Positions 5,167-54,628 of a stretch of DNA of 59,139 bases are shown piece by piece. Within the stretch, counting starts at the first letter, position 1. Every line of letters begins with the position of its first letter. Source of the DNA: Candidatus Tayloriibacteriota bacterium. Its GTDB lineage: Bacteria; Patescibacteriota; Minisyncoccia; Phycocordibacterales; HO2-43-120. The DNA is taken from assembly GCA_039934295.1 (NCBI GenBank), contig JBDTMN010000006.1, positions 1 through 59,139 on the forward strand. Reading direction: 5' to 3'. A program made the position numbers and the translations under genes. The notes beneath the pieces were generated by a model. It was not told the origin of the DNA and did not search any database. It saw nothing but the letters and a program-made list of their open reading frames with translations.

Positions 5167-5179
5167 GATGATAAGTTAA

Positions 5180-5207
5180 AAGTGCAAAGTATAAAGTATA
5201 AAGTAGA
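5180..5207. repeat. 7-nt tandem array (AAGTATA family; sense strand ACTTTAT) just upstream of the trxB start
   Basis: aagtgca aagtata aagtata aagtaga, ending 13 nt from the trxB ATG at 5166. Confidence 0.8.
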
Positions 5208-5244
5208 ATCTGATTATAGCAGAAGATGCAGAAAAGCCGAAGAG

Positions 5245-6863: not shown

Positions 6864-6879
6864 GGCAATTTTGGCTTAT

Positions 6880-6896
6880 AGCTGTTAGCTTTTAGG
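6880..6896. repeat. AGCT-heptad units upstream of the ftsZ start
   Basis: agctgtt agctttt agg. The sense strand for ftsZ reads ...AAAGCTAACAGCT... Confidence 0.6.
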
Positions 6897-7091
6897 CGCT
6901 TGCTTGAATAGAAATCTGCAGTTAAAAAACAAGTCAGCGCTACACTAGCAATCTCACTTAATGGGGCTATCATAGCAGAAGTGCTATTAAAAAGAAAAGG
7001 GGTTGACAGAAGCAGGAAGTATATATTGTAATATTATCATTTTTTCCATTAAACTGGTTGAAATTTTATGCAGAATCATCCGCAAGAAATA

Positions 7092-7162
7092 AGCTTTCAG
7101 CTTTTAGCTGTTAGGAATGAATATCAAAGCTAAAAGCTGGAATCTTACAGCTGGTAGCTCCT
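7092..7162. repeat. Two AGCT-heptad arrays in the ftsA-ftsZ spacer
   Basis: agctttc agctttt agctgtt (7092-7112), then agctaaa agctgga atcttac agctggt agctcct (7128-7162). The ftsA stop codon (complement of 7161-7163) lies in the last unit. Confidence 0.8.
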
Positions 7163-8351
7163 AGGGGAGAAACTGTTTTACCCATCCGACAACAGTTTTT
7201 GCCAAAGACTTTAGAAATCTGAGACCTCGCTTTATTCCGATAGCGTCTTCAAGAGTATTGGTGAAGCCCAAAAGGCACAGACCGTAAGCTACAGCGAAAA
7301 CAACGTTTCGGACGGGCGACTTCATATTTCCCTGAATCGCCAGATCCGAGACCTTCGAAGGGAGCTTCAAGGACCGCATTGCAAATTCGGGGATGGTGTT
7401 TAAGAGCGAGCCACCGCCGATGAACACGATGCCTGCGGGCAGGAGACCGTCTCTTCCGATTTTTTTTAGGTGATTTTCTATGAGCTCAAAAATATCGCTC
7501 AATCTCGCGTCAATGATTTCTTCCATTTTTTTCTTTGGGTGCTCGCCACCATCTCTCCTATCGCGCTTTGCGGACTCGGCATCCTCGAGAGGAATTTTAA
7601 AGCCGAGGGCGATGTCATTGGTAATATCGGTTGAGCCTATGGGAAATACCTCGAGAGATATGGGGATGTCGTTTTCGTAGACTACCACTGAAACCGTTTC
7701 TGAGCCGATATTTGCAAGGACACAGCCGGCGATTTTTTGCAATTTGTTTATTGTGACAAGGCTTGCCGCGATCGGCGAGGCGATGAGATCTTCGGCCTCC
7801 ACACCGAGCTCTTCCAGGCATAGAATTATGTCGTTTACATGTTGTTCGAGACAGGTTATGAAGAGAGTCTTAACGTCAAGCTTTGCCGCCTTCATGCCAT
7901 GTGGACGTCCCCAGACCGTTTTTCCGTCAATCTTGAATTGAAGGGGAATGGTGTGGATAATTTTGCGATTCAAAGAAATTTGTCGCGGAATTTCCTTTTC
8001 GCTCGCGGCAATGGCATGGCTCACATCAAGATCGGTAATCTCGCTGTCGGCGCGCGATATCATGATGCTTCCGTGCGATATGCGACTCTCGAGACCGATT
8101 CCTCCAAGAGCGACGTACGCCTTTTTGATTTTAATTCCCGAGCTCTTTTCGGCCTGACGGATGGCAAGACCAATGCTTCGCGTTACCTCGGCGGAATTCA
8201 CGATATAACCGTTGCGAAGTCCTTTGGATTCAGAAAATCCTGCTCCCAGCACGCGAGGAAAACCCTTCTCCGCGATGCCTCCCGCTTCGCAGACGAGTAC
8301 TTTGACCTCGTAAGAACCAATATCTATTCCAATTGAAATGTTGCGTGCCAT
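7161..8351 (-). CDS. ftsA: Cell division protein FtsA
   Basis: Actin-like ATPase N-terminus IGIDIGSYEVKVLV. Length 396 aa, immediately upstream of ftsZ. Confidence 0.93.
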   Translation of the reverse strand: MARNISIGIDIGSYEVKVLVCEAGGIAEKGFPRVLGAGFSESKGLRNGYIVNSAEVTRSIGLAIRQAEKSSGIKIKKAYVALGGIGLESRISHGSIMISRADSEITDLDVSHAIAASEKEIPRQISLNRKIIHTIPLQFKIDGKTVWGRPHGMKAAKLDVKTLFITCLEQHVNDIILCLEELGVEAEDLIASPIAASLVTINKLQKIAGCVLANIGSETVSVVVYENDIPISLEVFPIGSTDITNDIALGFKIPLEDAESAKRDRRDGGEHPKKKMEEIIDARLSDIFELIENHLKKIGRDGLLPAGIVFIGGGSLLNTIPEFAMRSLKLPSKVSDLAIQGNMKSPVRNVVFAVAYGLCLLGFTNTLEDAIGIKRGLRFLKSLAKTVVGWVKQFLP

Positions 8352-8952: not shown

Positions 8953-9192
8953 TTATCTTCGAGAGGGTTTCTCAACAATTTTTCCCAGCTTAATAAGTTC
9001 GTCCATTTCTTCTCTTTTTCTCAGCTTTTTCAAGGCTCTTTTTTTCTTGGTGTAGGGCGAGGGGATTCGTTCGGAATAGCGCAAAGACCGCACGCGATTC
9101 AAAACACCAGAGCCTTGCACGCGTTTAGTAAACCTTCGCAAAAGGTTGATGTTATTTTCATTGCTGTTTTTCTCCACCTGAATATTTATCAT
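8953..9192 (-). CDS. rpsU: 30S ribosomal protein S21
   Basis: MINIQVEKNSNENNINLLRRFTKRVQGSGVLNRVR matches the S21 pattern (LRRFKR...GVL). I prefer the internal ATG at 9192 over the track start at 9228. Confidence 0.85.
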   Translation of the reverse strand: MINIQVEKNSNENNINLLRRFTKRVQGSGVLNRVRSLRYSERIPSPYTKKKRALKKLRKREEMDELIKLGKIVEKPSRR

Positions 9193-9232
9193 GCATTGCA
9201 TCCTACCATAGGAGAGGGAAAAGTCCAAGAAT

Positions 9233-9288
9233 AGGTGTTAGGTGTAAGGTGTAAGGTGTAAGGTGTAAGGTGTTAGGTGTTAGCTTTT
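9233..9288. repeat. 8-unit heptad array (AGGTGTA/AGGTGTT/AGCTTTT)
   Basis: aggtgtt, aggtgta x4, aggtgtt x2, agctttt. It is an inverted partner of the array at 10366-10421 and is followed by GATAAT at 9290-9295. Confidence 0.9.
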
Positions 9289-9319
9289 CGATAATACTTC
9301 GAGGGTGAGGAGGGTAACT

Positions 9320-9348: not shown

Positions 9349-10296
9349 CTATATTTTATAGATATTCTCATTCACTTCTTGCTCAGAGCCGAAAGCTTCC
9401 TTTCTCGCAAAACGATAGAGTACATATTGTGCCGAAATGTTTCCTAAGTCTGTAGCCTGACGGCTTGCTTCCTCACTATAAACGCGCATAAGACCTCCTA
9501 CCATTTTACCTGTATTACCAAACTGAGCCAAACCAAGACTAATAGATCCAATTGCCAGTTGGGCAATACTATTTACAGAGTTCGCACCGATGCTTAGAAT
9601 CAACGACTTCTTAAATGTTTCAGATTTACTGACATTATTAAGCTTTCTCATCTCTTCCAGCATTAACTTATAAGAATGATCTGTTCCAAATTTATCAAGG
9701 AAAATAAACCACGTGTATCGTAATTTTGTTTTAAGATAATAGCCATAAGCAACAAGACCTATTACAAATACTACGAATAGTACGAGCGAACTATTCAAAA
9801 TAATTTCATAGCCGGTAGAACTGTTAAATATAGGTACGAAAATCATTATTACTAAACCGAAAGCAACAATAATCACCGCAATAGGTACAAAGTAATACTG
9901 TAGCCAGAGTTTAATACGGAAGTCAATAGCTGGCCAAAATAATTTTCTCGCTATTTTCCAACTTTCCGATGGGGATAGATTCTTTTTGTCGAAAAATGAG
10001 TCAATCCATATTTGCTTCTCGATTTTGAATATAAAACGAATAATTTGACTATAAATTACTGCTAGAATCAAGTATACGGCAAGGGCTTCGAAATAAATAA
10101 ATTTTTGATCCTGTGAAAATGAATTGAAGTCATAAATCAGGTTAAGCACGTAAGATACTACGATAAGTAATAAATACGGCCAAGTGATGAGCAGTATCCT
10201 TTTAAACAGTGCTGATTTTCTAAGCTTAAGCTGTCGCCCTATTTCCTCAAATATTTCTTTGTAAGTTGGAGGTAGGGTTGTATTGCTTATTTGCAT
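9349..10296 (-). CDS. Multi-pass membrane protein, hypothetical (low GC)
   Basis: ORF of 315 aa with several long hydrophobic segments. Visibly more AT-rich than flanking genes. No family motif recognised. Confidence 0.6.
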   Translation of the reverse strand: MQISNTTLPPTYKEIFEEIGRQLKLRKSALFKRILLITWPYLLLIVVSYVLNLIYDFNSFSQDQKFIYFEALAVYLILAVIYSQIIRFIFKIEKQIWIDSFFDKKNLSPSESWKIARKLFWPAIDFRIKLWLQYYFVPIAVIIVAFGLVIMIFVPIFNSSTGYEIILNSSLVLFVVFVIGLVAYGYYLKTKLRYTWFIFLDKFGTDHSYKLMLEEMRKLNNVSKSETFKKSLILSIGANSVNSIAQLAIGSISLGLAQFGNTGKMVGGLMRVYSEEASRQATDLGNISAQYVLYRFARKEAFGSEQEVNENIYKI

Positions 10297-10365: not shown

Positions 10366-10421
10366 ACCTAGAAGCTAACACCTAACACCTAACACCTAAC
10401 ACCTAACAGCTAACAGCTACC
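10366..10421. repeat. 8-unit heptad array (ACCTAAC/AGCTAAC)
   Basis: acctaga agctaac acctaac x4 agctaac agctacc. The stop codon of the HisRS-like gene (complement of 10417-10419) is inside the last unit. Confidence 0.9.
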
Positions 10422-11637
10422 CCTTTATCTTCTTCAAATATTCCGCAAGTCTAGCTATTGGAATCGTTTCTTGGCAACGCGTAGCCATATCACGAACAAT
10501 GATGCTTCCTTCGAGCGCCTCCTTCTGGCCCATGATAATCGAATAGGGCACTTTCAATCTTTCGGCGACCTCGAGCTGGGGTGCTAATTTGTCTTTGACG
10601 AGGCCCTGCGCCAGAGGGATTTTTTCCTTACGCAGGATTTCCACGATTTCAAGGCTCTTCAATTTTGCCTCAAAGCCGAGCTGGATAAAATAAATTTTGG
10701 CGGATTTAAATTTTCTCTTCAGCTTTTTTACACTGCCGGTTCCTTTTTTGTAATGGACGAAAATGCCCGCCGCTCCGAGCTCTTTTTTGTAACCGATTTT
10801 TTTGGAAAGACTGTTATAGCGGAGGCCAACTGCAAGGGTGGTTCCCGTGTCGGTGTCTTTAATCGAAAAAATAGTTCCCATGCAAAGCTTTCTTGAATGG
10901 AGAAGGTCGGTGCTGATTTTGTAGGGAATTTTCAAAGTCTCCAGATATTCCAGAACCTCTCCGAAATGTTTTCTCGCGGTTTCCGAGAGCGAGTCGATGG
11001 GGTGCGGGGCATTTCCTTTCTGTGATTGGCATTTCTCGTTATCGCAAAGCAGAACGTCGAAGGGGTCGTCCTTGAGTGCCTGACGGCAATGAGCGGAAAG
11101 CGTATTTATATTTTTTCTGTAATAGTTCGAGAGGTCACGCATGAAGCTTGACATGGAGTCTTTGTCTCCAATGCTGTTGATTTCGATTTGTAGATTTTCG
11201 TAACCCTCATCTTTTAAAATTTCAAGTGCCGTTTTTATGAGAACCGCTTCGGCAATGCTTTTCGTCGTGCCGATAATGTCCAGATAGAAGCGTTTTTCAT
11301 TGGGAAGCGCCCGCACTCTCCCTCCATCGATGCGTTCATAGTAGAGCATCAAGGGCTGGCTTAGGGGACTCGGATTATCTTTGAGAAAATTTCGGAAGAG
11401 AGCTACTTTTTCTTCGGGACGTATTGAAAAGATGTGTTTTTCCAATTCATTTTCTTCCTTCAGTTCTAAAACTTTGCGGGCGATGTCGAAGTCTTCTTTT
11501 TTAAGTTTAAACGGGACTGCATGGGTGAAGCCATAGTAGTAAGCAATCTCGGCAGACTTCTCCACGCTCCGCGACTTGGCTCTGTGTCTGCTTTTTACCT
11601 TTCGTTTCAGGACTTTTTTTTTATGGATAGTAACCAT
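10417..11637 (-). CDS. Histidyl-tRNA synthetase-like protein (HisS/HisZ family) with degenerate catalytic motifs
   Basis: C-terminal HGTP anticodon-binding-like domain (IYFIQLGFEAK...VPYSIIMGQKEALEGSIIVRDM). Motif 2/3 regions look degenerate (YYERIDGGRVR..RFYLDIIG; VGLRYNSL). Basic N-terminal extension. Confidence 0.6.
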   Translation of the reverse strand: MVTIHKKKVLKRKVKSRHRAKSRSVEKSAEIAYYYGFTHAVPFKLKKEDFDIARKVLELKEENELEKHIFSIRPEEKVALFRNFLKDNPSPLSQPLMLYYERIDGGRVRALPNEKRFYLDIIGTTKSIAEAVLIKTALEILKDEGYENLQIEINSIGDKDSMSSFMRDLSNYYRKNINTLSAHCRQALKDDPFDVLLCDNEKCQSQKGNAPHPIDSLSETARKHFGEVLEYLETLKIPYKISTDLLHSRKLCMGTIFSIKDTDTGTTLAVGLRYNSLSKKIGYKKELGAAGIFVHYKKGTGSVKKLKRKFKSAKIYFIQLGFEAKLKSLEIVEILRKEKIPLAQGLVKDKLAPQLEVAERLKVPYSIIMGQKEALEGSIIVRDMATRCQETIPIARLAEYLKKIKG

Positions 11638-11687: not shown

Positions 11688-12272
11688 TTACTCGGGAGTC
11701 GCGAATTCGCCCGGTAAAACTGCAATTTTGGTTATTGGATGAAGGCGAATGACCGGCCGTCCGATGATGAGGGCTTCCTTTACCGGTCCCCAGAATCTAG
11801 AGTCGGAGCTTTGAGGCCTGTTGTCCCCCATGACGAAATACTCGTCGCCCAAAGTGATTTTGAACGAGTCAAACGATTTGTTTTCCAAATACGGCTCATT
11901 TAAGGCAAAGCCCTTTGGATGCAGTGCATTGACGATAGTTATTTTTCCGCCTTGAGATTCCACAGTTTCCCCTGGCAGACCGATGATTCTTTTTATGTAG
12001 TATTTGCTCTCGTCTTTAGGATATTTGAAAATAATGACATCGCCACGCGCAGGATTCTCAAAGCGGTAGGTGAGCTCGTCGACAATTAAATATTCTCCGT
12101 TTAGAAAAGTAGGATCCATTGAAGAACCGCTTACCACAAAAGGCTTTGCGACAAAAAAACGGATCGGGATGACGATGATAAGAGCAATCAATCCGAATCG
12201 AAGGAGCTCGGCGAATGCTCCTTCGGATTTGGGAGGAATGCGAGGCGGAGGATTTTTGGGAGCGGCGTTCAT
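11688..12272 (-). CDS. lepB: Signal peptidase I
   Basis: Catalytic Ser box SGSSMDPTF, plus GDNRPQSSDSR. N-terminal TM segment. Confidence 0.9.
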   Translation of the reverse strand: MNAAPKNPPPRIPPKSEGAFAELLRFGLIALIIVIPIRFFVAKPFVVSGSSMDPTFLNGEYLIVDELTYRFENPARGDVIIFKYPKDESKYYIKRIIGLPGETVESQGGKITIVNALHPKGFALNEPYLENKSFDSFKITLGDEYFVMGDNRPQSSDSRFWGPVKEALIIGRPVIRLHPITKIAVLPGEFATPE

Positions 12273-12552: not shown

Positions 12553-12587
12553 CACTTTACACTTTACACTTTACACTTTACACTTCT
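12553..12587. repeat. Heptad array (CACTTTA)x4 plus CACTTCT, immediately upstream of the pth start
   Basis: Perfect 7-nt tandem repeats ending 3 nt before the ATG at 12591. Confidence 0.9.
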
Positions 12588-12590
12588 CCC

Positions 12591-13187
12591 ATGTCTTACA
12601 TCATCGTTGGTCTAGGCAACCCCGGAGAAGAATATGAAAATACCCGACATAATGTTGGACGGATGGCTCTCATGTCGTTTCAGAAAGAGCAAGATTTTCC
12701 GGAGTGGAAGCTGAACTCAAAAATAAATGCTTTAATTTCAGAAAAAAATTTGCCGAACATAGGCAAGGTTACTCTGATTTTGCCGGAGGCATTTATGAAC
12801 AACTCTGGCAAAAGCCTGACGACAGTTATTACGAGCAAAAAGAAAGCAAAGGAGCTTGTCGTCGTTCACGATGATTTAGACCTTCCGCAGGGCAAGGTGA
12901 AAATTTCGTTCAACAAGAGCGCGGGAGGTCATCGCGGGGTTCAAAATATCGTAAACAAAATTAAGACGGAAGAATTTGTCCGAGTGCGAATCGGCATTTC
13001 TCCAGAAACAAAAAAAGGCATAAAAAAACCGCAAGGCGAGAAAGCCGTCCTCGATTTTATTCTCGGAAAACTCAAACCCGAAGAAGAGAAGCAATTCAAA
13101 AAAGAATTTAAGACAATCTCAAAAGCCCTCTTGATTCTCTTAGGGGAAGGCTGGAGCAAAGCGGCGAGTGTGTATGGTAGCTTGTAG
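12591..13187 (+). CDS. pth: Peptidyl-tRNA hydrolase
   Basis: N-terminal signature IIVGLGNPGEEYENTRHNVG. The track start (12540) would translate the heptad array, so the internal ATG is preferred. Confidence 0.92.
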   Translation: MSYIIVGLGNPGEEYENTRHNVGRMALMSFQKEQDFPEWKLNSKINALISEKNLPNIGKVTLILPEAFMNNSGKSLTTVITSKKKAKELVVVHDDLDLPQGKVKISFNKSAGGHRGVQNIVNKIKTEEFVRVRIGISPETKKGIKKPQGEKAVLDFILGKLKPEEEKQFKKEFKTISKALLILLGEGWSKAASVYGSL

Positions 13188-14270: not shown

Positions 14271-14310
14271 GAAAACAAAAACTCCGAGCTTCTCCGGAGT
14301 TTTTGTTTTC
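14271..14310. terminator. Symmetric hairpin terminator shared by convergent genes
   Basis: GAAAACAAAAACTCCG-agcttct-CCGGAGTTTTTGTTTTC. Confidence 0.6.
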
Positions 14311-14314
14311 TTGA

Positions 14315-14356
14315 AGCTAAAAGCTAACAGCTAACAGCTAATAGCTAATACCTACT
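14315..14356. repeat. AGCT-heptad array abutting the rpsA stop codon
   Basis: agctaaa agctaac agctaac agctaat agctaat acctact. The rpsA stop codon (complement of 14352-14354) lies in the last unit. Confidence 0.85.
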
Positions 14357-16261: not shown

Positions 16262-16396
16262 AATTCAATTTTTTTCAAAGCCATATTTACAGTACTCCTG
16301 CTTTTCTCACTAGTCAATTTCCTATCTCCCAACCTTTCTTTGGAAATTAGAAATTAGTAATTGGAAATTTCTTTTAGTATCTGTTATACTTTATGC

Positions 16397-17029
16397 ATGA
16401 TTATCACGTATCTCGGAGCGGAGTTTTTCAAAGTGCAATTCGGCGAGACCGTGATTGCCTTCAATCCTATTTCGAAGGAATCTAAATTTAAGCAATCGCG
16501 TTTTGGAGCAGACGTAGCCCTCGTCTCATTGAACGACAAAGATTTTAATGGCTTCGAGACGCTCGGATTCGGCGAAAAAAAACCTTTTGAAATTAGCGGC
16601 CCGGGCGAGTATGAAATCAAAGGAATTTTCATAAAAGGATTCAAGTCGGTGTCACACTATGGCGGAAGCAAAGGCAAAATCAATACGATTTATCTTCTCT
16701 CACTCGATGGAATCAGTTTATGCTTTCTTGGGGCGCTTGGGGGAGAGATTGACAAAGAAACGATGGAGAGTCTTGATGACATCGATATTCTTTTTACGCC
16801 CATCGGGGGGCAGGGAACGCTCGAGCCGAGCGCTTCGTATAAAATTGCCGTCAATTTGGAACCTAAGATTATCATTCCAATGCTCTATGATGAGAAAGGC
16901 GATGTCTTAAAGAAATTTCTGAAAGAAGGTGGAGAGGAGAAAGCGGAGCCACAGGACAAACTTACGATAAAGAAGAAAGATTTGGAGGGAAAGGAAGGGG
17001 AGATAGTGGTGCTTGCGCCGCAAGCATAA
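16397..17029 (+). CDS. MBL-fold metal-dependent hydrolase (UPF0173-like)
   Basis: The MIITYLGAEFFKVQFGETVIAFNP start and overall layout resemble Lactamase_B_3 proteins. Internal ATG at 16397 preferred. Confidence 0.65.
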   Translation: MIITYLGAEFFKVQFGETVIAFNPISKESKFKQSRFGADVALVSLNDKDFNGFETLGFGEKKPFEISGPGEYEIKGIFIKGFKSVSHYGGSKGKINTIYLLSLDGISLCFLGALGGEIDKETMESLDDIDILFTPIGGQGTLEPSASYKIAVNLEPKIIIPMLYDEKGDVLKKFLKEGGEEKAEPQDKLTIKKKDLEGKEGEIVVLAPQA

Positions 17030-17425: not shown

Positions 17426-19894
17426 ATGAAAGACAAACAAAAAACAAAAGACGCAGAACCGCTACTCCCGCGCCAGAGCATCATCTCTCGGAGCATCACC
17501 GCCGAGATGCGTGAGTCCTACCTCGACTATGCCATGTCGGTCATCACCTCGCGGGCGCTTCCCGATGTTCGAGACGGATTGAAACCTGTGCATAGGCGCA
17601 TCTTGTTTGCCATGCACGAAAAAGGCCTCACTGCTTCGGCAAAATTTCGAAAATCAGCCGTGGTGGTCGGAGACGTTCTCGGTAACTACCATCCTCACGG
17701 AGACGTGTCGGTATATGACGCGATGGTAAAGATGGCACAGGACTTTGCTATGAGATACCCTCTTGTGTCTGGTCAAGGAAATTTTGGTAATGTCGACGGG
17801 GACTCTGCAGCTGCCATGCGATATACGGAAGCGAAAATGTCAAAAATTGCGAGCGAGCTCCTGAGGGATATCGAAAAAGAAACGGTAGAATGGAGAAGTA
17901 ACTACGACAACACTCGAAAAGAGCCTACGGTGCTTCCGGCGGCAGTGCCCAATCTGCTTTTAAACGGCACTCTCGGTATTGCTGTCGGAATGGCAACCAA
18001 CATTCCACCGCACAACTTGGGCGAAGTGGTGGACGCGACCTTAGCTTTGATTGAGGACAAAGACGCTACTCTGGAAGACCTTCTTCAACATGTGAAAGGT
18101 CCTGATTTTCCGACAGGAGGCATTATTTATGGACAGAAAGATATTCATCATGCGTACGCGAATGGCCGGGGCGGAGTAGTGGTAAGAGGCGAAGCTGAAA
18201 TTGTCGAAAATTCGGGCAGTTCCTCCTCAATAATTATCACCTCGATTCCGTACCGTGTGAACAAAGCCGACCTCATCATGCACATTGCGGACTTGGTTCG
18301 GGAGAAAAAAATCGAGGGCATAAAGGGGCTCCGCGACGAGTCGACTGCCGACATGCGGATTGTCATTGACCTTAAAAACGGAGCGTATCCCCAGAACGTG
18401 CTGAACTACCTCTACGAACATTCTCAACTCGAAGAAACATTTCATTTCAACGTGGTGGCATTGGTCGCGGGCGTTCCTCAAACCCTTTCTCTGAAATCGA
18501 TTCTTGAAGAATTTATTATCCATCGGGAAGTGGTGGTGCGTAAGCGGACTGAATTTGATTTGAAAAAAGCTCTGGAGCGGGAGCATATTCTTCTCGGGCT
18601 TAAGAAAGCTCTCGACCACATTGACAGAATCGTAAAGTTGATACGTGCGGCAAAAGATGTGCAGGAAGCTCATGCAGATTTGAAAAAAGAATTCAAATTC
18701 TCGGACATTCAGGCGACGGCTATTCTCGAAATGCGTCTTCAGAAGCTCGCCGGCCTTGAGCGCAAAAAAATCGAGGATGAACTTATGGTAACGCAGGCCC
18801 TCATCGGGTCTTTGAAAGAGTTGCTTGGCTCCGTGAAGAAAATCCGCGAAGTGATAGCTCGCGAGCTCAAAGAAATAAAAGAAAAATATTCGGACGACAG
18901 GAAGACCAAGGTGATAAAATCAAGTCCAAAAGATTTTTCACCCGAAGACGTTATTCCCGACACCGAGTCCGTGCTCGTGCTAACCGCGGGAGGCTATATC
19001 AAAAGGACAGAGCCAACCGAGTACAAAAGGCAGAAGCGCGGAGGCGTGGGGGTGGTGGACCTCGACACGAAGGAAGAGGATTTTGTCACTCATTTTCTGA
19101 CAACGAATACCCACAGCGACCTACTTTTTTTCACCGACAAAGGCAAGGCGTATCAGATAAAAATGTATGATATTCCCGAAGGCAAGCGCGCCACAAAAGG
19201 GAAATCAATAATGAATTTTCTTTCACTTACCGCGGAAGAGAAAATCACCTCCATCCTGCCCATGCCAAAAGAGGTCAAGAAATCGGGCCTCTCACTTCTC
19301 ATGCTCACCAAGGGAGGTATCGGCAAAAAAGTGCTTGGGGAGAGTTTTTACGATGTCCGCCGTTCGGGACTTATCGCAATCGGTCTATCAGACGGGGATG
19401 AACTTAAGTCGGTAAATTTTGTGGAAAAAGGCGACGACGCAATTGTGGCGACTTCGCTCGGTCAGTCAATCAGGTTCAAAGAATCCGATATTCGGGTAAT
19501 GGGAAGAGGAGCTGGCGGAGTCCGCGCCATCAAGCTTAAAAAAGGGGATTCTCTCATCGGAGCCGATGTCATAAAGAAAGACTACAAAGAACCCGCGTTT
19601 CTTGTTATTTCCGAAAATGGATATGGAAAGAAAACCGATTTGTCCGAATACAAGACGCAAAATCGAGGAGGTTCGGGAATTAAAACGGCGAAAGTGACCG
19701 CAAAAACCGGTAAGCTCATCAGCTCAAAAGTGGTGGTGCCCAACGAGACCGAAGAGCTGGTGGCGATATCAAAAAAGAGTCAGGTCATCCGCGTCGCCAT
19801 TCACGAAGTGCCTCTTCTCGGGCGTCAGACGCAAGGCGTTCGAATCATGAAGCTCCGCGAAGGCGACAATCTGGCAAGCGCAGTCAGCTTGTAA
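17426..19894 (+). CDS. gyrA: DNA gyrase subunit A
   Basis: Length 822 aa. [16 protein letters not shown], active-site AAMRYTE, and C-terminal beta-pinwheel repeats. Confidence 0.98.
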
Positions 19895-19928
19895 GCTTTT
19901 AGCTACTAGCTTTTAGCTATTAGCTTTT
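19894..19928. repeat. AGCT-heptad array (T-rich form) fused to the gyrA stop codon
   Basis: agctttt agctact agctttt agctatt agctttt. The stop TAA (19892-19894) overlaps the first unit. TATAAT follows at 19930-19935. Confidence 0.9.
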
Positions 19929-19960
19929 CTATAATACAGATGAACAAATTAATTTCTTAA

Positions 19961-19995
19961 AGCTAGAACCTAACAGCTAACAGCTTCAAGCTACC
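19961..19995. repeat. AGCT-heptad array (A-rich form) ending 1 nt before the start codon at 19997
   Basis: agctaga acctaac agctaac agcttca agctacc. Confidence 0.9.
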
Positions 19996-19996
19996 C

Positions 19997-20524
19997 ATGT
20001 TCTCCGACCCCAAACACAACATTGAGCAATTAAATCTCGACCCGGGGATGGTTGTTGCAGACGTGGGCTCGGGCTCCGGCCATTATTCGCTGGAGGCCGC
20101 AAAAATTGTGGGCGATAAGGGAAAGGTATACGCCATTGACGTGCAAAAGGATTTGCTCGCGAGGCTCAAGTCGCACGCGGTAGCGGAGCACCTCCATAAT
20201 ATTGAAGTCATTTGGGGCAACGCGGAAAAGCCGGGCGGGACTCGAGTCAAGGACGCATTTGTCGATTTTGTATTCGTGTCAAATATTTTGTTTCAGGTTG
20301 AGGACAAGAAAACATTTGCCAAGGAAATCAAGCGGATTGTGAAGACGAACGGAAGAGTGCTGGTGGTTGACTGGGCGGATTCTTTTGGAGGCATGGGTCC
20401 GCAAAGGGAACACGTTGTCACGGAAGCGAAAGCCAAGGAACTCTTTCTGTCCGAAGGTTTGGCGTTTGAGCGAGGCATACAAGCCGGCGCGCACCACTAC
20501 GGCCTCGTTTTCCGAAAACTGTAA
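19997..20524 (+). CDS. Class I SAM-dependent methyltransferase
   Basis: Motif I VADVGSGSGHYS. Length 175 aa. Confidence 0.85.
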   Translation: MFSDPKHNIEQLNLDPGMVVADVGSGSGHYSLEAAKIVGDKGKVYAIDVQKDLLARLKSHAVAEHLHNIEVIWGNAEKPGGTRVKDAFVDFVFVSNILFQVEDKKTFAKEIKRIVKTNGRVLVVDWADSFGGMGPQREHVVTEAKAKELFLSEGLAFERGIQAGAHHYGLVFRKL

Positions 20525-20533
20525 CGCGGAAGA

Positions 20534-20624
20534 ATGTAACATGTAGCGTGTAACGCACGACGTCTGAAAATGCAATTTTCTTTTTCCTTTTACGTTACAA
20601 GTTACACGCTACACGTTACACATT
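20534..20624. repeat. Inverted pair of heptad arrays (ATGTAAC / GTTACAC family) forming a long hairpin
   Basis: atgtaac atgtagc gtgtaac gcacgac at 20534-20561, and ttacgtt acaagtt acacgct acacgtt acacatt at 20590-20624. GTAGCGTGTAACG is complementary to CGTTACACGCTAC. Confidence 0.8.
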
Positions 20625-20701
20625 CAAACAAGCTATACGTTTTTAATGTGAATGCGTTATAATAAGAAGGAATAAATAATAGTAACCACTTCTCAATCCC
20701 G

Positions 20702-23073: not shown

Positions 23074-23079
23074 CTAAAT

Positions 23080-23152
23080 CAGATTCTGTCATCCCCGTGT
23101 AGACGGGTATCTCGATTAACCCTAGATTCTCGCTTTCACTAGAATGACACGT
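23080..23152. mobile_element. MITE-like hairpin element (TGTCAT...ATGACA family)
   Basis: TCTGTCATCCCCGTGTAGACGGGTATC ... AGATTCTCGCTTTCACTAGAATGACA. Confidence 0.6.
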
Positions 23153-23160
23153 TCACTTCA

Positions 23161-23577
23161 ATGACAAAAACAATCCTTAAAAAATCAGCCGTACTCCTCA
23201 TGCTTCTTTTCTTTGTAGGTTCCTCGGTTTTGCCTTTTACCGCTGAAGCACAATGGGGAAGGTATTTGGGAGCCACATGTCCTAAGCCACCTAATAACTT
23301 CAAAGATTTCGTCTGCATTTCGATGGAGATTATTTCTCTCACAACGGTCTTTGCCGCTTCAAGCGCATTTCTGGCTTTCATTTGGGGATTGTCAAAGTTT
23401 ATTTACGCTTCAGGCAATGAGGAAAAAGTGGCTGATGGGAAAATGATTATGAAATGGGGACTCATCGGATTGTTTTTTATGGTATCAATCTGGGGGGTCC
23501 TGTTTGCACTTACCACCGGCTTAGGTCTCGATTACGGTATACCCCTCCTGCCCCAAACCAATTTTATCAATTATTAG
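23161..23577 (+). CDS. T4SS-pilin-like small membrane protein, paralog 3
   Basis: Signal peptide ending AEAQ, and two TM helices around YASGNEEKVADGKM. Confidence 0.6.
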   Translation: MTKTILKKSAVLLMLLFFVGSSVLPFTAEAQWGRYLGATCPKPPNNFKDFVCISMEIISLTTVFAASSAFLAFIWGLSKFIYASGNEEKVADGKMIMKWGLIGLFFMVSIWGVLFALTTGLGLDYGIPLLPQTNFINY

Positions 23578-23584
23578 TGATTCC

Positions 23585-23650
23585 TTGTCATTCACGCGAA
23601 GGCGGGAATCTAGGTTGATCTGGATCCTCGCATTCGCGAGGATGACAGAA
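23585..23650. mobile_element. MITE-like hairpin element (TGTCAT...ATGACA family), most complete copy
   Basis: TTGTCATTCACGCGAAGGCGGGAATCTAG-gttgat-CTGGATCCTCGCATTCGCGAGGATGACAGAA. Each arm is itself a hairpin. Confidence 0.7.
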
Positions 23651-23662
23651 TAGGAATTTTGT

Positions 23663-23690
23663 CACTTTTACTTTCCACTTTACACTTGCC
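23663..23690. repeat. Degenerate CACTTTA-type heptad array upstream of the start at 23694
   Basis: cacttttactttccactttacacttgcc. Confidence 0.55.
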
Positions 23691-23693
23691 TCC

Positions 23694-23990
23694 ATGCACT
23701 TAAACTCCATTCAAGACGTCATCCAGCTTTTCATTGATTTTAATTTGAAGCTGTTGCTCCCAATAGCTTTTTCTCTCGGCCTTCTTTATTTCATGTGGAG
23801 AGGGTTAGTATACATTTTTCATTCAGACTCGGAGGAGAGCAAATCGGAAGGGCGGAGAATTCTCACCTGGGGGGTGATATCACTTTTTCTCATGGTGTCG
23901 GTCTGGGGAATCATAAAACTTTTTCAATCTGATATTTTTGGAATCCCCCCACCTTCAGAGGTTATCTTCTTTGAGCATTCCGGTCAATGA
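23694..23990 (+). CDS. T4SS-pilin-like small membrane protein, paralog 4 (no obvious signal peptide)
   Basis: Two TM helices around the loop HSDSEESKSEGRR. Same architecture as the three upstream paralogs. Confidence 0.5.
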   Translation: MHLNSIQDVIQLFIDFNLKLLLPIAFSLGLLYFMWRGLVYIFHSDSEESKSEGRRILTWGVISLFLMVSVWGIIKLFQSDIFGIPPPSEVIFFEHSGQ

Positions 23991-32600: not shown

Positions 32601-32831
32601 ATGACTCAAAAAGTTATACAAATTGGAAGTTCAGCGGGTATCACGATACCTAAAAAATCACTTAAGGAACTTGGTCTCAAAATCGGAGACGATGTGCGTG
32701 TGGACGTTGATCCAAAAAAAAGGAAAGTAGTAATTGAAGTGGGTGATTCTCCACAGTCGGAAGTTGTTGAATGGACGGATTTGTTCATTCATAGATACAG
32801 CAAGGCGTTAAAAGCGTTGGCAAATAAATAA
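32601..32831 (+). CDS. AbrB/MazE/SpoVT-family antitoxin
   Basis: VIQIGSSAGITIPKKSLKELGLKIGDDVRV is a swapped-hairpin beta-barrel motif. Length 76 aa, 4 nt upstream of the Doc gene. Confidence 0.8.
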   Translation: MTQKVIQIGSSAGITIPKKSLKELGLKIGDDVRVDVDPKKRKVVIEVGDSPQSEVVEWTDLFIHRYSKALKALANK

Positions 32832-32834
32832 TTC

Positions 32835-33239
32835 ATGATCCGTTATCTGACTTCTGAGGAAGTTCTTATTATTCATGCGAGAATTGTTGATGCGACAGGT
32901 GGTTTGCATGGTGTTCGAGATATTTCTCGAATCGCTTCAATGATTGAGAGGCCAAAGCAGCAATTTGGCGGGGAGGATTTGTACCCGACATTGTTCCTGA
33001 AGTCCGCAGTGTATTTTGAGGTTTCGGCATATCACCATCCGTTTGTTGATGGCAACAAGCGAACAGCTATTGCCCTCGGTGCGCGATTTCTGTTCCTAAA
33101 CGGATATGATTTAGCAACGACTGACGAAAATCTTGAGGAGTTTGTAATTGAATGTGTCATAAAAAAGAATGATTTACAAGTGATTGCCAAATGGTTCGAA
33201 AAACATTCACGGAAAATTTTGAGGAGGAAGAAAAGTTGA
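32835..33239 (+). CDS. doc: Doc (death-on-curing) Fic-family toxin
   Basis: Doc-type Fic motif HHPFVDGNKRTA. Confidence 0.88.
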   Translation: MIRYLTSEEVLIIHARIVDATGGLHGVRDISRIASMIERPKQQFGGEDLYPTLFLKSAVYFEVSAYHHPFVDGNKRTAIALGARFLFLNGYDLATTDENLEEFVIECVIKKNDLQVIAKWFEKHSRKILRRKKS

Positions 33240-33272: not shown

Positions 33273-34532
33273 ATGAAATACGATATAAAAGACATCGGAC
33301 TTGCGGAGGAAGGCAAAAGGCGAATTGATTGGGCGGAAAGAGACATGCCCGTTTTGAGGCAGATTAAAAAAAGATTTCAGAAAGAAAAACCGTTAAAGGG
33401 CGTGCGTGTCGCGGCGTGTCTTCATGTGACTTCGGAGACGGCGAACCTGATGATAGCTCTTAAGGCCGGCGGAGCGGAGGTTACGCTCTGCGCTTCAAAT
33501 CCCCTTTCAACGCAGGATGATGTTGCGGCCTCGCTTGTTCATCACGAGAAAATTTCTGTTTTTGCCACTCACGGCGAGAACAACGAAACCTATTTTAAGC
33601 ACGTGAATTCCGCGCTCGACCTCGTGCCCCACATCACCATGGATGACGGAGCGGACCTTGTGAGCGAACTTCATAAAGGCAGGCGCGAACTTATAAAGAA
33701 TATGAAGGGAGGCACGGAAGAAACGACGACCGGAGTCATCCGCCTTCGGGCTCTTGCCAAAGAAGGCAAACTTGCGTTTCCTGTTCTTGCCGTGAATGAC
33801 GCAAAAACGAAGCACATGTTTGACAATCGCTACGGCACAGGCCAAAGCACAATTGACGGCATCATACGGGCAACGAATCGCCTTATCGCGGGGTCTACGT
33901 TTGTTGTTGCGGGGTATGGATGGTGCGGAAAAGGGGTGGCAATGCGAGCCCGCGGACTCGGAGCAAGTGTCATCGTGACGGAAATAGACGGAGTGAAAGC
34001 GCTTGAGGCGCACATGGAGGGCTTTCGAGTGATGCCAATTCGAGAGGCGGCAAAGGAGGCGGATTTTATCGTCACTTTGACGGGGGATATCGATGTGGTA
34101 AATGGAGAAGTCTTCAAGGTTATCAAGGATGGGTGCGTTGTCGCAAACTCCGGGCATTTTAATAACGAAATAAATATAAAAGATTTGGAAAAGCTTACGC
34201 GCAAAAAAACCGTTCTCAAACCGAATGTTGTGGAATACGTTTTGTCCGACGGGAGACGAGTGTACTTACTTTCCGAAGGGCGACTCGTGAATTTGGCATC
34301 TGCCGAAGGTCATCCCGCCTCGGTGATGGACATGAGCTTTGCGAATCAGGCGCTCGGCGCGGAATATATTTTGAAAAATGCCGACAAACTTGCTAAAAAC
34401 GTGCATGTCATTCCTCGAGATGTTGATGATAAAATTGCCGGTCTTAAACTGGAGGCTCTTGGCGTAAAAATCGATGCTCTCACCGCGAAACAAAAAAAGT
34501 ATTTGGAGAGCTGGGAAGAAGGGACGGAATAG
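33273..34532 (+). CDS. ahcY: Adenosylhomocysteinase
   Basis: [28 protein letters not shown], and the NAD motif [12 protein letters not shown]. Confidence 0.95.
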
Positions 34533-34565
34533 CTGTTAGCTGTTAGGTGTTAGCTGTTAGGTGAT
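34531..34565. repeat. AGCT/AGGT heptad array fused to the ahcY stop codon
   Basis: agctgtt agctgtt aggtgtt agctgtt aggtgat. The stop TAG (34530-34532) overlaps the first unit. Confidence 0.9.
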
Positions 34566-38223: not shown

Positions 38224-38350
38224 TAGGACTTTCGAGTTTGGCGCATTTCTTCGTTGCTTCGGTCGTTTGCTCCTTCGCAGTAGTATCTAACTACAGCTCA
38301 GTCGCAAGCTTCCCTCGCGCCTTGAACTGCATCCAAACTCGTAAGTCCTA
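38224..38350. mobile_element. 127 nt hairpin element B1
   Basis: TAGGACTTTCGAGTTTGG ... CCAAACTCGTAAGTCCTA close the element. The 50 nt core at 38249-38298 is shared with B2. The last 14 nt are then partly duplicated (GTAAGTCCTAAAAA twice). Confidence 0.65.
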
Positions 38351-38411: not shown

Positions 38412-38870
38412 ATGGATATTTTTATTGCTCAATTTGAATTATTCGATATCGTTCTCATCGCTTCACTTTTGGGGGGAGTTATCGGGCTTGAACGGGAGAC
38501 AAGCCACATTTCCGCGGGTCTTCGAACTCATATGCTTATCGCCGCGTCGGCCGCAACCCTCGTGTCGCTTGGCACGATTCTTTCGGAGTCGTATCTTGCG
38601 GTTTTACCTCTCGATTCGCTCAAAGTTGACCCTATCGGAATTTTTCAAGCGATAATCGTGGGAATCAGCTTCATCGGTGGCGGAATTATTTTCCGAGATA
38701 AAGATGGAGAGCATGTAAAGAACCTCACCACCGCGGCTTCAATTCTTCTTACATCGGGAGTCGGCATTGCTGTGGCTCTCCATCAATTTTATTTTGCCGT
38801 GGGTATAACCATTCTCGTTGTTTTTGTGAATCATATACTCTATAAGGTTGAAAAGAAGTATATTAACTAA
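38412..38870 (+). CDS. mgtC: MgtC/SapB-family membrane protein
   Basis: LLGGVIGLERE...AGLRTHMLIA signature. Length 152 aa. Confidence 0.85.
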   Translation: MDIFIAQFELFDIVLIASLLGGVIGLERETSHISAGLRTHMLIAASAATLVSLGTILSESYLAVLPLDSLKVDPIGIFQAIIVGISFIGGGIIFRDKDGEHVKNLTTAASILLTSGVGIAVALHQFYFAVGITILVVFVNHILYKVEKKYIN

Positions 38871-39109
38871 ATAGGACAGCAGAATTTAGCGCTCTCCTTC
38901 GTTGCTTCGGTCGTTTGCTCATTCGCAGTAGTATCTAACTACAGCTTGGTCACCCTCCTTACAGGAGCAGTACACTCTTCACATTTCGCAGACGAAACGT
39001 TCAGAGTCTTGCGGAGCTTCAAGTATTCGCTCCTCACCTCCCTCGTGCCTCCTAGACCGTCTGACGACGTCGGACCAGGTCGGATAGCATCTAAATTCTG
39101 CTGTCCTAT
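38871..39109. mobile_element. 239 nt hairpin element B2
   Basis: ATAGGACAGCAGAATTTAG ... CTAAATTCTGCTGTCCTAT close the element. The core at 38897-38946 matches B1 at 49 of 50 positions. ORFs 38939..39181 and 38946..39152 lie inside it and are judged spurious. Confidence 0.65.
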
Positions 39110-39204: not shown

Positions 39205-39504
39205 GCCGATGTAGCTCAGTTGGTAGAGCACGTCATTGGTGGGTCGTCACTCCTGCCCATACTGGAAGTAATTCCCGTATGAATCCCGAATTACGGTTAA
39301 TATCCTGCACTATTTTTTTACCATATTTCGTAAACAAAATAGTGAAGGACAAGACCGTTCCGCCTAAGGCGGACGAACGACTGACAAGGGCTTCCCGTCA
39401 CTTTTTTTACAAAAAGTGACGGGAAGAAGATACAGTCTAGTCCTTATCGTAAGATGAGGTGTAAACGAATGACGAGGTCTCCGGTTCAATCCCGGACATC
39501 GGCT
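39205..39504 (+). tRNA. tRNA-Thr (anticodon GGU) interrupted by a 227 nt intron after anticodon position 36
   Basis: Exon 1 is GCCGATGTAGCTCAGTTGGTAGAGCACGTCATTGGT (39205-39240). Exon 2 is AATGACGAGGTCTCCGGTTCAATCCCGGACATCGGCT (39468-39504). Joined, they give a canonical 73 nt cloverleaf with loop TTGGTAA. Confidence 0.85.
39241..39467 (+). ncRNA. Group I-like self-splicing intron in the tRNA-Thr anticodon loop
   Basis: The 5' exon ends in U, which can form a U-G wobble in a P1 helix (GGU|GGG with CCUGCC at intron nt 12-17). The intron ends in G (..GTAAACG). Several stable hairpins are present, including a 16 bp perfect stem at 39391-39426. The 3' part (GAAGATACAGTCTAGTCC...AAACG) resembles the Azoarcus tRNA-Ile IC3 intron as I recall it. 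Confidence 0.7.
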
Positions 39505-39534
39505 CCCTAAAATATTTTGGTTGCTAAAATATTA

Positions 39535-52890: not shown

Positions 52891-53796
52891 ATGTTAAATG
52901 AAAGCCGAAAAATGAACAGCGCAAGCGGTGACGCGCGAATCAAGGAAATCGAAGCGTTGATGATCGATTCGGAATTTTGGTCTGACAAGCAAAAGTCCCA
53001 GTCTCTGATTAGGGAACTTCAGGAATTGAAGGAGGGAATGTCAACGGGCGGGACAGGAGGAAAATTTGACCGAGGTGGGGCCGTCATTACCATATTTTCA
53101 GGAGCGGGAGGAGACGATGCCGAAGATTTTTCCGCCATTCTTTTTAGAATGTATCGAAAGTATATCGAAAACAAGGGGTGGAAAATCAGCATGCTTCACT
53201 CGAACGAAAATGACCACGGAGGGTTTCGCAACCTTACATTTGAAATAGACGGCAAGGGCGTGTATGGAACGCTCAAAAACGAGTCGGGCGTTCACCGCCT
53301 TGTGCGCATTTCCCCATTTAACGCCAAAAAACTCCGCCACACGTCGTTTTCAATGGTTGAAGTGATTCCCAAATTCGACAAGACGGTTGATATTGAAATT
53401 CCGCCTGCTGAAATCGAAATTAGCTACGCGCGCTCAAGCGGGCCGGGAGGCCAGAACGTGAACAAGCGGGAGACCGCAGTCCGCCTTGTGCATCTCCCGA
53501 CAAAAATCGCGGTGCATGTGGAAACAGAACGGTCGCAGGCGCAGAATAAGGAAAGGGCGATGGACTTGCTTCGGGGAAAGCTCTACAAAATGCGAGAAGA
53601 CGAGCGGGTGGCAAAAGAAAAAGGCATGTATATCTCAAAGACGACCTCTGTTGAGTGGGGCAATCAGATTCGCTCATACGTTCTTCACCCTTACAAAATG
53701 GTGAAAGACCATAGAACAAACGTGGAGACCTCGCAGGTGGACAAAGTGCTGGAAGGAGGATTGGAGGAGTTTATTAGCGCTGAAGCATTGCTCTAA
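52891..53796 (+). CDS. prfB: Peptide chain release factor 2 (short N-terminal domain, no programmed frameshift seen)
   Basis: SPF tripeptide (RISPFNA) and GGQ (SSGPGGQNVNK). Length 301 aa. No CTTTGAC frameshift site upstream. Confidence 0.9.
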   Translation: MLNESRKMNSASGDARIKEIEALMIDSEFWSDKQKSQSLIRELQELKEGMSTGGTGGKFDRGGAVITIFSGAGGDDAEDFSAILFRMYRKYIENKGWKISMLHSNENDHGGFRNLTFEIDGKGVYGTLKNESGVHRLVRISPFNAKKLRHTSFSMVEVIPKFDKTVDIEIPPAEIEISYARSSGPGGQNVNKRETAVRLVHLPTKIAVHVETERSQAQNKERAMDLLRGKLYKMREDERVAKEKGMYISKTTSVEWGNQIRSYVLHPYKMVKDHRTNVETSQVDKVLEGGLEEFISAEALL

Positions 53797-53809
53797 GCTG
53801 TTAGCTGTC
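53796..53809. repeat. AGCT-heptad units fused to the prfB stop codon
   Basis: agctgtt agctgtc. The stop TAA (53794-53796) overlaps the first unit. Confidence 0.7.
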
Positions 53810-53854: not shown

Positions 53855-53889
53855 ACCTAAAAGCTAGAAGCTAATAGCTAATAGCTGTT
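53855..53889. repeat. AGCT-heptad array (A-rich form) ending 3 nt before the ftsE start
   Basis: acctaaa agctaga agctaat agctaat agctgtt. Confidence 0.9.
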
Positions 53890-54573: not shown

Positions 54574-54593
54574 GACAAAACAAAATTTACAAT

Positions 54594-54628
54594 ACTTTAT
54601 ACTTTTCACTTTATACTTTATACTATTT
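54594..54628. repeat. Heptad array (ACTTTAT family) ending 5 nt before the ftsX start
   Basis: actttat acttttc actttat actttat actattt. Confidence 0.85.

Follow-up and report, generated by a model that had tools for sequence, protein, structure and literature searches.

Intergenic heptanucleotide repeat arrays oriented by neighbouring stop and start codons in a Taylorbacteria-like contig

Heptanucleotides are the most abundant long simple-sequence repeats (LSSRs) in many bacteria, and polymerase slippage has been proposed as their source (Mrazek 2007, as cited in PMC4679880 and PMC4692102). The TAACTGA repeats of marine Beggiatoaceae, which also occur in some cyanobacteria and Bacteroidetes, are intergenic, share a 'forward' orientation, mostly end 1 nt before start codons without a Shine-Dalgarno (SD) sequence and sometimes overlap the ends of upstream open reading frames (ORFs), and binding of S1, Csp or CsrA has been proposed for them (MacGregor 2015, PMC4679880). 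Heptamers near start codons in Nostoc affect expression, with an unidentified binding partner proposed (bioRxiv 10.1101/2022.06.06.494920), and in Haemophilus influenzae the hmw repeat (ATCTTTC)n is transcribed in the 5' untranslated region (UTR) and there makes up the left-hand arm of a long hairpin that RNase III processes (PMC12721329). The subject of the present analysis is a stretch of 59,139 nt from a Candidatus Tayloriibacteriota bacterium (contig JBDTMN010000006.1; the window), the spacers of which contain tandem arrays of 7-nt units. A G/T-rich form of the unit starts at or beside six stop codons, and its complement, or variants thereof, runs up to eight start codons. The explanation favoured here, held with moderate confidence and read from sequence, is that these are slippage-born UTR repeats whose orientation would be set by what SD-less initiation tolerates or needs, and whose stop-side and start-side partners may form hairpins on read-through transcripts.

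A sequence-only reading of the window could not assign the arrays to a described regulatory element; they do, however, belong to the described class of intergenic heptanucleotide repeats: oriented start-proximal heptamers are known in Beggiatoaceae (PMC4679880) and Nostoc (bioRxiv 10.1101/2022.06.06.494920), and a heptamer hairpin is known at hmw (PMC12721329). By their sequence, the window arrays are securely placed among the intergenic heptanucleotide simple-sequence repeats (SSRs), of one class with STRR, TAACTGA, GGGAATC and the hmw ATCTTTC. New to this class are the host, a member of the Candidate Phyla Radiation (CPR), the complementary pairing of stop-side and start-side arrays into predicted spacer-spanning hairpins, and an AGCT-core design found in Acidobacteriota contigs; no paper on such arrays in CPR or Acidobacteria was found in the literature.

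A close likeness is to TAACTGA (PMC4679880), with which the window arrays share tandem 7-nt units, an almost exclusively intergenic location and a fixed orientation ending a few nucleotides before SD-less starts (five of the eight start-side arrays of the window do so at 1-5 nt). Both also carry stop codons in all frames, in the forward orientation for TAACTGA, some sets of which overlap an upstream ORF at its end, and one Bacteroidetes TAACTGA set lies reversed directly after a stop. Both are scattered sporadically over the phylogeny, and TAACTGA shows 7-nt indels between strains and has been proposed to act in translational control. The unit sequence and host phylum differ, however, and the window has a complementary stop-side form pairing with the start-side form, whereas only one inverted set was reported for BOGUAY; tandem TAACTGA is absent from the window, where a single match with two mismatches is at chance level. 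At hmw1A/hmw2A (PMC12721329), too, a heptamer SSR lies between promoter and start; there it is transcribed as 5' UTR, its pyrimidine-rich repeats form the left hairpin arm against a purine-rich right arm, and the hairpin controls expression through RNase III. Unlike the window arrays, hmw is a phase-variable virulence locus with many repeats and a right arm that does not itself consist of repeats. The genes beside the window arrays are housekeeping genes, a promoter-like box lies in the loop, and the hmw unit ATCTTTC is absent from the window. The cyanobacterial STRR, Xanthomonas GGGAATC and Nostoc GGGGAYT heptamers (PMC4692102) are likewise over-represented, intergenic and near starts or stops, with several unit families per genome, occasional inverted pairs, and length and sequence varying between related species. 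These units are G-rich and may form G-quadruplexes, in contrast to the AT-rich window units with a palindromic AGCT core or no G, and a strict boundary-dependent polarity is not reported for them (PMC4692102).

REP and REPIN elements are imperfect palindromes of about 35 nt that are spread by RAYT transposases and affect mRNA stability or translation. The window arrays resemble them in being extragenic, lying just after stops and often forming hairpins as inverted doublets, but differ in having a 7-nt unit with variable copy number and so do not qualify as REP; neither a RAYT-like gene nor a conserved REP body was found among the window ORFs scanned.

The arrays stand far above chance. Tandem Repeats Finder reports period-7 arrays at 5186, 6869, 9233, 10375, 12553, 14315, 16343, 19894, 19970, 20592, 34530, 53857 and 54592. 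A lag scan in which an array requires at least 12 of 14 matches at lag p finds 12 arrays at period 7 and 0-2 at each of periods 5, 6 and 8-13, the eight arrays at period 14 being the same arrays. Shuffles preserving dinucleotides (n=100) hold a mean of 0.21 period-7 arrays and a maximum of 4, and the strand-neutral pattern AGCTN3 x4 occurs five times in the window and never in 100 shuffles. Non-coding DNA outside ORFs makes up 14.5% of the window, and every one of the 12 lag-scan arrays falls within it. The arrays have what defines the LSSR/STRR class, namely three or more head-to-tail 7-nt units that outnumber both the chance expectation and repeats of other unit lengths, and the earlier count of at least 12 spacers with tandem heptamers is borne out by the 13 found. 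An assembly artefact, named in the sequence-only reading as a condition that would overturn it, is unlikely: over 6.5 kb, a Logan contig from an independent assembly matches the window at 100% identity, arrays and all, and many other assemblies contain similar arrays. Selection for or against AGCT as a restriction site was rejected as well: the observed-to-expected ratio of AGCT is 1.06 in coding DNA, and the intergenic value of 1.93 is due to the arrays themselves. An Rfam scan of the window returned only four tRNAs at gathering score and placed no family on the arrays.

The arrays and the elements associated with them are as follows.

19892 to 19928, + strand: gyrA stop codon TAA fused to five units of the G/T form, AGCTTTT AGCTACT AGCTTTT AGCTATT AGCTTTT.
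19930 to 19935, + strand: TATAAT, a -10-like box in the loop between the gyrA-side and methyltransferase-side arrays.
19961 to 19995, + strand: start-side A/C form, AGCTAGA ACCTAAC AGCTAAC AGCTTCA AGCTACC, ending 1 nt before the methyltransferase ATG at 19997.
53794 to 53809, + strand: prfB-like stop codon TAA fused to two units, AGCTGTT AGCTGTC.
53855 to 53889, + strand: start-side AGCTAGA AGCTAAT AGCTAAT AGCTGTT, with the last AGCT 6 nt before the ftsE ATG at 53893.
34530 to 34563, + strand: ahcY stop codon TAG fused to AGCTGTT AGCTGTT AGGTGTT AGCTGTT AGGTG, followed by two perfect hairpins.
7090 to 7163, - strand: ftsA stop codon, then a degenerate G/T form and its complement, with arms at 7128-7147 and 7090-7109 that are 90% complementary.
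6869 to 6896, - strand: start-side AAAAGCT AACAGCT ATAAGCC, 16 nt before the ftsZ ATG.
10366 to 10421, - strand: HisRS-like stop codon TAG fused to seven units, AGCTGTT twice, AGGTGTT four times and AGCTTCT.
9231 to 9288, - strand: rpsU leader of eight ACACCTT or ACACCTA units, with a sense TATTAT box upstream.
14313 to 14356, - strand: rpsA (S1) stop codon TAG, then AGGTATT AGCTATT AGCTGTT AGCTGTT AGCTTTT AGCTTCA.
14271 to 14310: classical bidirectional terminator after the rpsA array.
12553 to 12588, + strand: (CACTTTA)x5, coming to within 2-3 nt of the pth ATG at 12591 and reading TTTACA-N17-TACACT-N6-ATG.
54592 to 54628, + strand: (ATACTTT/TCACTTT)x5, 5 nt before the ftsX ATG, filling the ftsE-ftsX spacer.
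5179 to 5209, - strand: trxB-like leader of three TACTTTA units and variants.
23663 to 23690, + strand: CACTTTT/ACTTTCC/ACTTTAC, 3 nt before the pilin ATG at 23694 and reading TTGTCA-N16-TACACT-N7-ATG.
20534 to 20624, + strand: inverted pair of GTAACNN heptamers, with arms at 20535-20554 and 20601-20620 that are 95% complementary.
16343 to 16369, + strand: GAAATTA x3.9 at the start of ORF 16361-17029, the sole start-side array with more G than C.

The gene names given to these flanks in the sequence-only reading have Pfam matches (trxB-like, FtsZ, FtsA, the anticodon domain of HisRS-like, Pth, S1, AdoHcyase for ahcY, RF, FtsE and FtsX), bS21 (rpsU) being recognised from its translation only. 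Its start distances also stood, at 1-5 nt for pth, ftsX, the methyltransferase, ftsE and pilin, 13 nt for trxB, 16 nt for ftsZ and about 34-43 nt for rpsU. The stop-side coordinates hold, except that the prfB array has only two units, and the claim that the stop codon forms part of the first unit at all six stops applies to four (TAAGCT twice, TAGCT twice) but not to rpsA (TAGGT) or ftsA (TAG-G-AGCT), where the spacing is irregular.

The start-side units ACAGCTA, ACACCTA, ACACCTT, ACACTTT and ATACTTT are linked by single substitutions, so that the AGCT and CACTTTA arrays, previously taken as two families, form, as judged from their units, one superfamily in one orientation. The stop-side units (TAGCTGT and AAGGTGT, the AGCTGTT/AGGTGTT form) are their reverse complements and carry TAG in every frame, every 21 nt. 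Start-side arrays are G-poor, C exceeding G in eight of nine. Since an order of T form followed by A form is unchanged by reverse complementing, only the nine unpaired arrays test polarity relative to genes, and all nine are oriented by the type of boundary (two-sided p about 0.004), in agreement with the polarity first described. Replication strand was rejected as its cause because both orientations occur on one strand within one block of co-oriented genes, each according to the adjoining start or stop. The wording of the polarity as T-rich against A-rich did not generalise: across the clade, A/T skew is not polar, and the rule that does carry over is an excess of sense G over C beside stops (36:14, p 0.003).

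It is a genome-wide consensus that the units match, not the complementarity of local arms, which speaks for binding sites of a trans-acting protein with a 7-nt footprint, either an OB-fold RNA binder such as S1 or a cold-shock protein, lined up head to tail along the UTR, or a DNA-binding ribbon-helix-helix repressor of the plasmid-omega type. Cold-shock proteins have a 7-nt site and the omega repressor reads 7-bp heptads. Binding of S1, Csp and CsrA has also been proposed for TAACTGA (PMC4679880) and a binding partner for the Nostoc repeats (bioRxiv 10.1101/2022.06.06.494920). The several unit variants that coexist in the one genome argue against a single sequence-specific reader, however, as do the different units in the same spacer of relatives, and no candidate gene was identified among the window proteins scanned. 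Such sites are improbable.

The window host, whose GyrA is 77% identical to that of Candidatus Taylorbacteria metagenome-assembled genomes, is by this measure a Taylorbacteria-like CPR/Paceibacteria bacterium, uncultured and tiny. AGGAG lies upstream of 1 of 48 window genes and G is depleted from -12 to -1, so far as sequence tells a genome essentially without SD sites. Hexamers of the form TAnnnT peak at a gap of 6 nt before the ATG, in 11 of 73 window ORFs compared with 0-5 at other gaps. The relatives sampled, 80 related loci (L001-L080, 1.25 Mb in total) that all belong to Paceibacteria/Patescibacteria although many record titles read 'Saccharibacteria', have it at this gap in 166 of 1556 ORFs against a background of roughly 30-90. 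Such a peak is the signature of leaderless mRNAs and suggests that this clade of Paceibacteria makes wide use of them. In about 20 relatives, the methyltransferase gene next to gyrA starts as TATAAT-N6-ATG, the leaderless type; in the window, this gene carries the arrays.

The spacer ahead of it runs from TAA and a T-form array through TATAAT (61 nt before the ATG) and a further 25 nt to an A-form array and the ATG. At trxB (TATAAT, 5213-5218 in sense) and at rpsU (TATTAT), a -10-like box lies about 7 nt upstream of the array, which would then form nearly all of the leader; the trxB-like leader also has TAACTT-N6-ATG at the array end. The earlier proposal that the A-rich array is transcribed as the 5' UTR is plausible given such boxes ahead of the trxB, rpsU and methyltransferase arrays. 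The box placed at 9290-9295 is indeed -10-like in the sense direction (TATTAT), but the GATAAT named there lies on the + strand and the genes on the - strand. A promoter scan calls both TTTACA-N17-TACACT-N6-ATG at pth and TTGTCA-N16-TACACT-N7-ATG at the pilin gene, inside the arrays, and CACTTTA arrays can reproduce sigma-70 geometry because 23 = 2 + 3x7. The T form as a promoter in the gyrA spacer was rejected, the -35 before TATAAT 19930 being poor and the scan making no call, so that a promoter reading appears valid only for arrays of the CACTTTA type.

The eight ACACCUU units of the rpsU leader presumably resemble the anti-SD strand of 16S rRNA. The bS21 gene itself (8953-9228, - strand) has an SD-like AGGA about 8 nt before its ATG and is among very few such genes in the window; this start recalls the special status of rpsU in SD-less Bacteroidetes.

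Folding of the spacers, proposed earlier as a check on the idea that array halves could form terminator-like hairpins, favoured pairing in part. The fold beats that of shuffles for three pairs (gyrA spacer, z -2.55; ftsA 3' end, z -2.7; 20525-20640, z -4.7), but not for the prfB-ftsE pair, and no array stem has a terminator's U-tract; leader arrays are unpaired in minimum free energy folds. An array as one arm of a long stable hairpin, as at hmw, is predicted at gyrA, ftsA and 20534-20624 (z -2.5 to -4.7) and in the metagenome contigs L152, L169 and L194 considered below, and not at prfB-ftsE or in unpaired arrays. The scanned window proteins included none from an rnc gene. A further conceivable function is to terminate or attenuate transcription by means of repeat hairpins, brought to mind by the ftsA 3' hairpin directly after the stop and by three relatives (L037, L053, L063) in which a classical terminator stands between inverted heptamer arrays that lengthen its stem. 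The window stems are, however, AT-rich, interrupted and without the U-tract that, together with a G+C-rich stem, characterises intrinsic terminators, and a terminator scan places only one weak site inside an array (7152-7135). The rpsA and ahcY arrays are each followed by separate canonical hairpins, and such classical terminators beside arrays imply that the arrays themselves are not terminators; unpaired leader arrays cannot be. This function is therefore very unlikely.

The longest inverted repeat between 4 and 24 kb consists of the AGGTGTT arrays at 9227-9286 and 10372-10431, which are 82% complementary over 60 nt, lie 1085 nt apart and bracket ORF 9349-10296 (- strand, 315 aa, no Pfam match). 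In the two nearest relatives (L202, L203), HisRS and rpsU have no such ORF between them, and in the window it may be an insertion into a former spacer hairpin. Similar gene-bracketing array pairs occur in L084, L070 and L077. Such pairs would be expected if the arrays were small mobile elements of the MITE or REPIN kind, or recombination sites, with inverted arrays marking inserted or invertible cassettes. Against this, there is no conserved element body, target-site duplication, transposase or RAYT gene, and most arrays are single, hold fixed positions relative to codons and differ in unit between loci, so that mobility is the least probable of the explanations considered. A second gene-bracketing inverted repeat, not made of heptamers, lies at 23076-23149 and 23586-23658 (46 nt at 72% and 29 nt at 83%) and flanks a gene similar to T4SS pilins at 23161-23577.

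In relatives, the period-7 scan proposed with the sequence-only reading again gave an excess, with 58 arrays at period 7 compared with 6-16 at periods 8, 10, 11 and 13. About 63 of the 70 arrays of window and relatives together lie in non-coding DNA, which makes up about 11% of the total. Arrays are four-fold sparser in the 80 relatives (1 per 21 kb) than in the window (1 per 4.9 kb) and are concentrated in few lineages, with blooms in L055, L069 and L077, a sporadic, lineage-specific abundance of the kind that marks LSSR/STRR repeats. Within the first 90 nt after the gyrA stop, 10 of 80 relatives score at least 11/14 at period 7, at least 7 of these 10 arrays starting within about 12 nt of the stop, with differing units (AGCTTAT, AGCTGAT, GAATTAA, GATTTAA, AGAATTT). 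Orthologous spacers of the nearest relatives, L202 and L203 (FtsA 70% and 63% identical), are free of arrays. L202 has an ordinary 14-bp long-range hairpin directly after the HisRS stop, and an exact-protein look-up for a strain-level relative returned the same genome only, the best FtsA homologue being at 70%. The arrays are thus evolutionarily labile, being absent in the nearest relatives and varying between species.

Such lability is also what would be left by functionless slippage debris, from which selection merely removes the copies that harm start regions or coding sequence. This is the main rival to the favoured explanation and is possible, if rather doubtful. Expansion wherever sequence is unconstrained would alone give the intergenic location, the abutment to stops and starts and the polarity; the sporadic distribution, unit turnover and loss in nearest relatives fit it too, as do the poor complementarity of the gyrA arms and the standing of heptamers as the commonest long SSR class, for which slippage has been proposed (Mrazek 2007, as cited in PMC4679880 and PMC4692102). 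Where an array ends 1-6 nt from an ATG, however, it takes up the entire initiation region and thus cannot be neutral to it.

Evidence from beyond the clade also bears on neutrality. Metagenomes were scanned with the strand-neutral pattern AGCTN3 x4, and the figures given here are among the matches listed, on contigs of 36%-70% G+C. A long ORF has its ATG within 15 nt after the array in 19 cases of the A-rich orientation and in 2 of the opposite one (p 2e-4), the start-side ratio by purine content being 22:1. In 9 of the 19, the last AGCT and the ATG are 6 nt apart, which is the modal gap. Close array pairs are mostly inverted rather than direct, with fold z of -3 to -14. Three contigs (L152, L169, L194) show the full window layout, in which the stop codon runs into the pyrimidine-rich (T-rich) array and the purine-rich (A-rich) one ends 6-10 nt before the ATG, and their spacers fold better than shuffles (z -3.0, -5.3 and -3.4, respectively); the L169 array uses TAAGCTTTTAGCTATT. 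Together with these three, the ychF spacer of an Acidobacteriota lineage (YchF 90-91% identical to that of Ca. Sulfotelmatobacter and Aquilonibacter) has a stop-fused T-rich form, a loop and an A-rich form 5-10 nt before the ATG. In this DUF4149-ychF spacer, the arrays bracket a conserved promoter-like block in the loop, and array units number 5, 4.5, 3.5, 1 or 0 across species and are identical in six samples of one species, meaning that the array is not hypervariable. The sharp 6-nt phasing in unrelated taxa, the predominance of inverted pairs with their fold scores and this constancy all speak against mere debris. Whether the Acidobacteriota purine-rich units form an SD array was also considered and rejected, as the last unit is mostly AGAAGCT or AAAAGCT, not AGGAGCT, and thus not clearly an SD.

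The recurrence of this layout invites a bolder proposal, that AGCT-core arrays are a cross-phylum cis-regulatory module (CPR, Acidobacteriota and others), a stop-to-start hairpin insulating or coupling the translation of neighbours and replacing the SD in SD-poor or leaderless bacteria. The pyrimidine- or G/T-rich array would be fused to the upstream stop codon and its complement would end about 6 nt before the downstream ATG, giving a hairpin across the spacer and around the downstream promoter, to be melted by the terminating ribosome or processed by RNase III. This proposal seems unlikely.

Three observations on individual contigs stand beside these. In the Acidobacteriota DUF4149-ychF spacer of L204-L220 and L106, the block ATTGGGCA...CATTTATCCTGAAAGGTTG is kept in all species between variable arrays and may be a ychF promoter or leader element. 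L086, a human gut metagenome contig, has at 975-1404 and 12059-12118 four AGCT-core arrays with common flanks …CATTCAGCACTTTT / TTTATCTTCTTACC… and different unit numbers, which by sequence are paralogous copies differing in array length. In L166 (2380-2840, a contig of 41% G+C), AGCT-core arrays flank rpsQ (S17, by eye from its translation), which suggests that they are carried on a polycistronic mRNA.

The favoured explanation, of slippage-born UTR repeats in a host initiating without SD, would work as follows. The heptamer arrays would be lineage-specific expansions of the slippage type, transcribed as UTRs in a host that lacks SD sites and whose default start would be leaderless (-10 box, 6 nt, ATG). 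An array inserted between the -10 box and the ATG would become the whole leader, for which the G-poor, structure-free orientation may be the only one compatible with SD-independent initiation; at pth and one pilin gene, the array itself could supply a -35/-10 pair in the leaderless register. The G/T-rich complement, with TAG in three frames per 21 nt, would be confined to trailers, abutting the stop. Where trailer and leader arrays share a spacer, they would pair into a long imperfect hairpin that brackets the promoter box and joins stop to start. On read-through transcripts, this hairpin may occlude the downstream initiation region or be cut in RNase III fashion as in hmw, and the units nearest the start are just those that would be opened by a ribosome terminating at the fused stop.

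Several points weigh against this explanation. Every functional step in it is inferred from sequence, and gene calls throughout were made by ORF heuristics. The loss of arrays in close relatives implies that they are dispensable at any one locus. Across the clade, the start-side excess of C over G (28:20) is not significant. L200, L037 and L055 show the opposite layout, with a purine-rich form after the stop and a pyrimidine-rich form before the start, and the stop-side bias in metagenomes is only a trend among the matches listed (22:12, p 0.12). As to hairpins, the fold of the prfB-ftsE pair does not exceed chance (z -0.3), and the loosely complementary gyrA arms match the genome-wide unit consensus better than each other, unlike what selection on a local stem would predict. 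A comparison of sense and antisense folding and of G-U counts, made as a test of selection at the RNA level, gave no decision either way.

Several other features of the window are set down here in their own right. A tRNA gene at 39205-39530 (+ strand) is split by an insert of about 225 nt with a full-length match to the group I intron model (RF00028, 32.5 bits, E 1e-6), below gathering score, and this split gene was called neither by ARAGORN nor by the Rfam gathering scan. The tRNA-Ser gene at 2005-2092 has a duplicate of its 3' end, CAAATCCCTCCCTTTCCGCA, about 180 nt downstream (about 2270-2292), which resembles an att-type scar left by the integration or excision of an element. At the window edge (1-851), tandem repeats of 63, 84 and 126 nt, all multiples of 3, probably represent a repeat protein, and a repeat of about 55 nt (TTCGTTGCTTCGGTCGTTTGCTC.TTCGCAGTAGTATCTAACTA) lies on both sides of ORF 38412-38870, at 38240-38300 and 38885-38938. 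At 32604-33239 (+ strand), a TTGACA-N16-TATAAT promoter precedes a small AbrB/MazE-like ORF (by eye from its translation) and then a gene with a Fic/DOC domain, likely a toxin-antitoxin pair.

In many bacteria no long simple repeats are as over-represented as heptamers, yet a worked-out mechanism is known only for those of H. influenzae hmw. To these the window adds an SD-less CPR host with many leaderless-type genes, a clean polarity that depends on the gene boundary, and a layout that recurs in Acidobacteriota. If the arrays do serve as initiation leaders or stop-to-start hairpins, they would represent a simple and evolvable route to translation signals without SD sequences; if they are only tolerated debris, their orientation would still be a sensitive read-out of the sequence that a start region can bear in SD-less bacteria.

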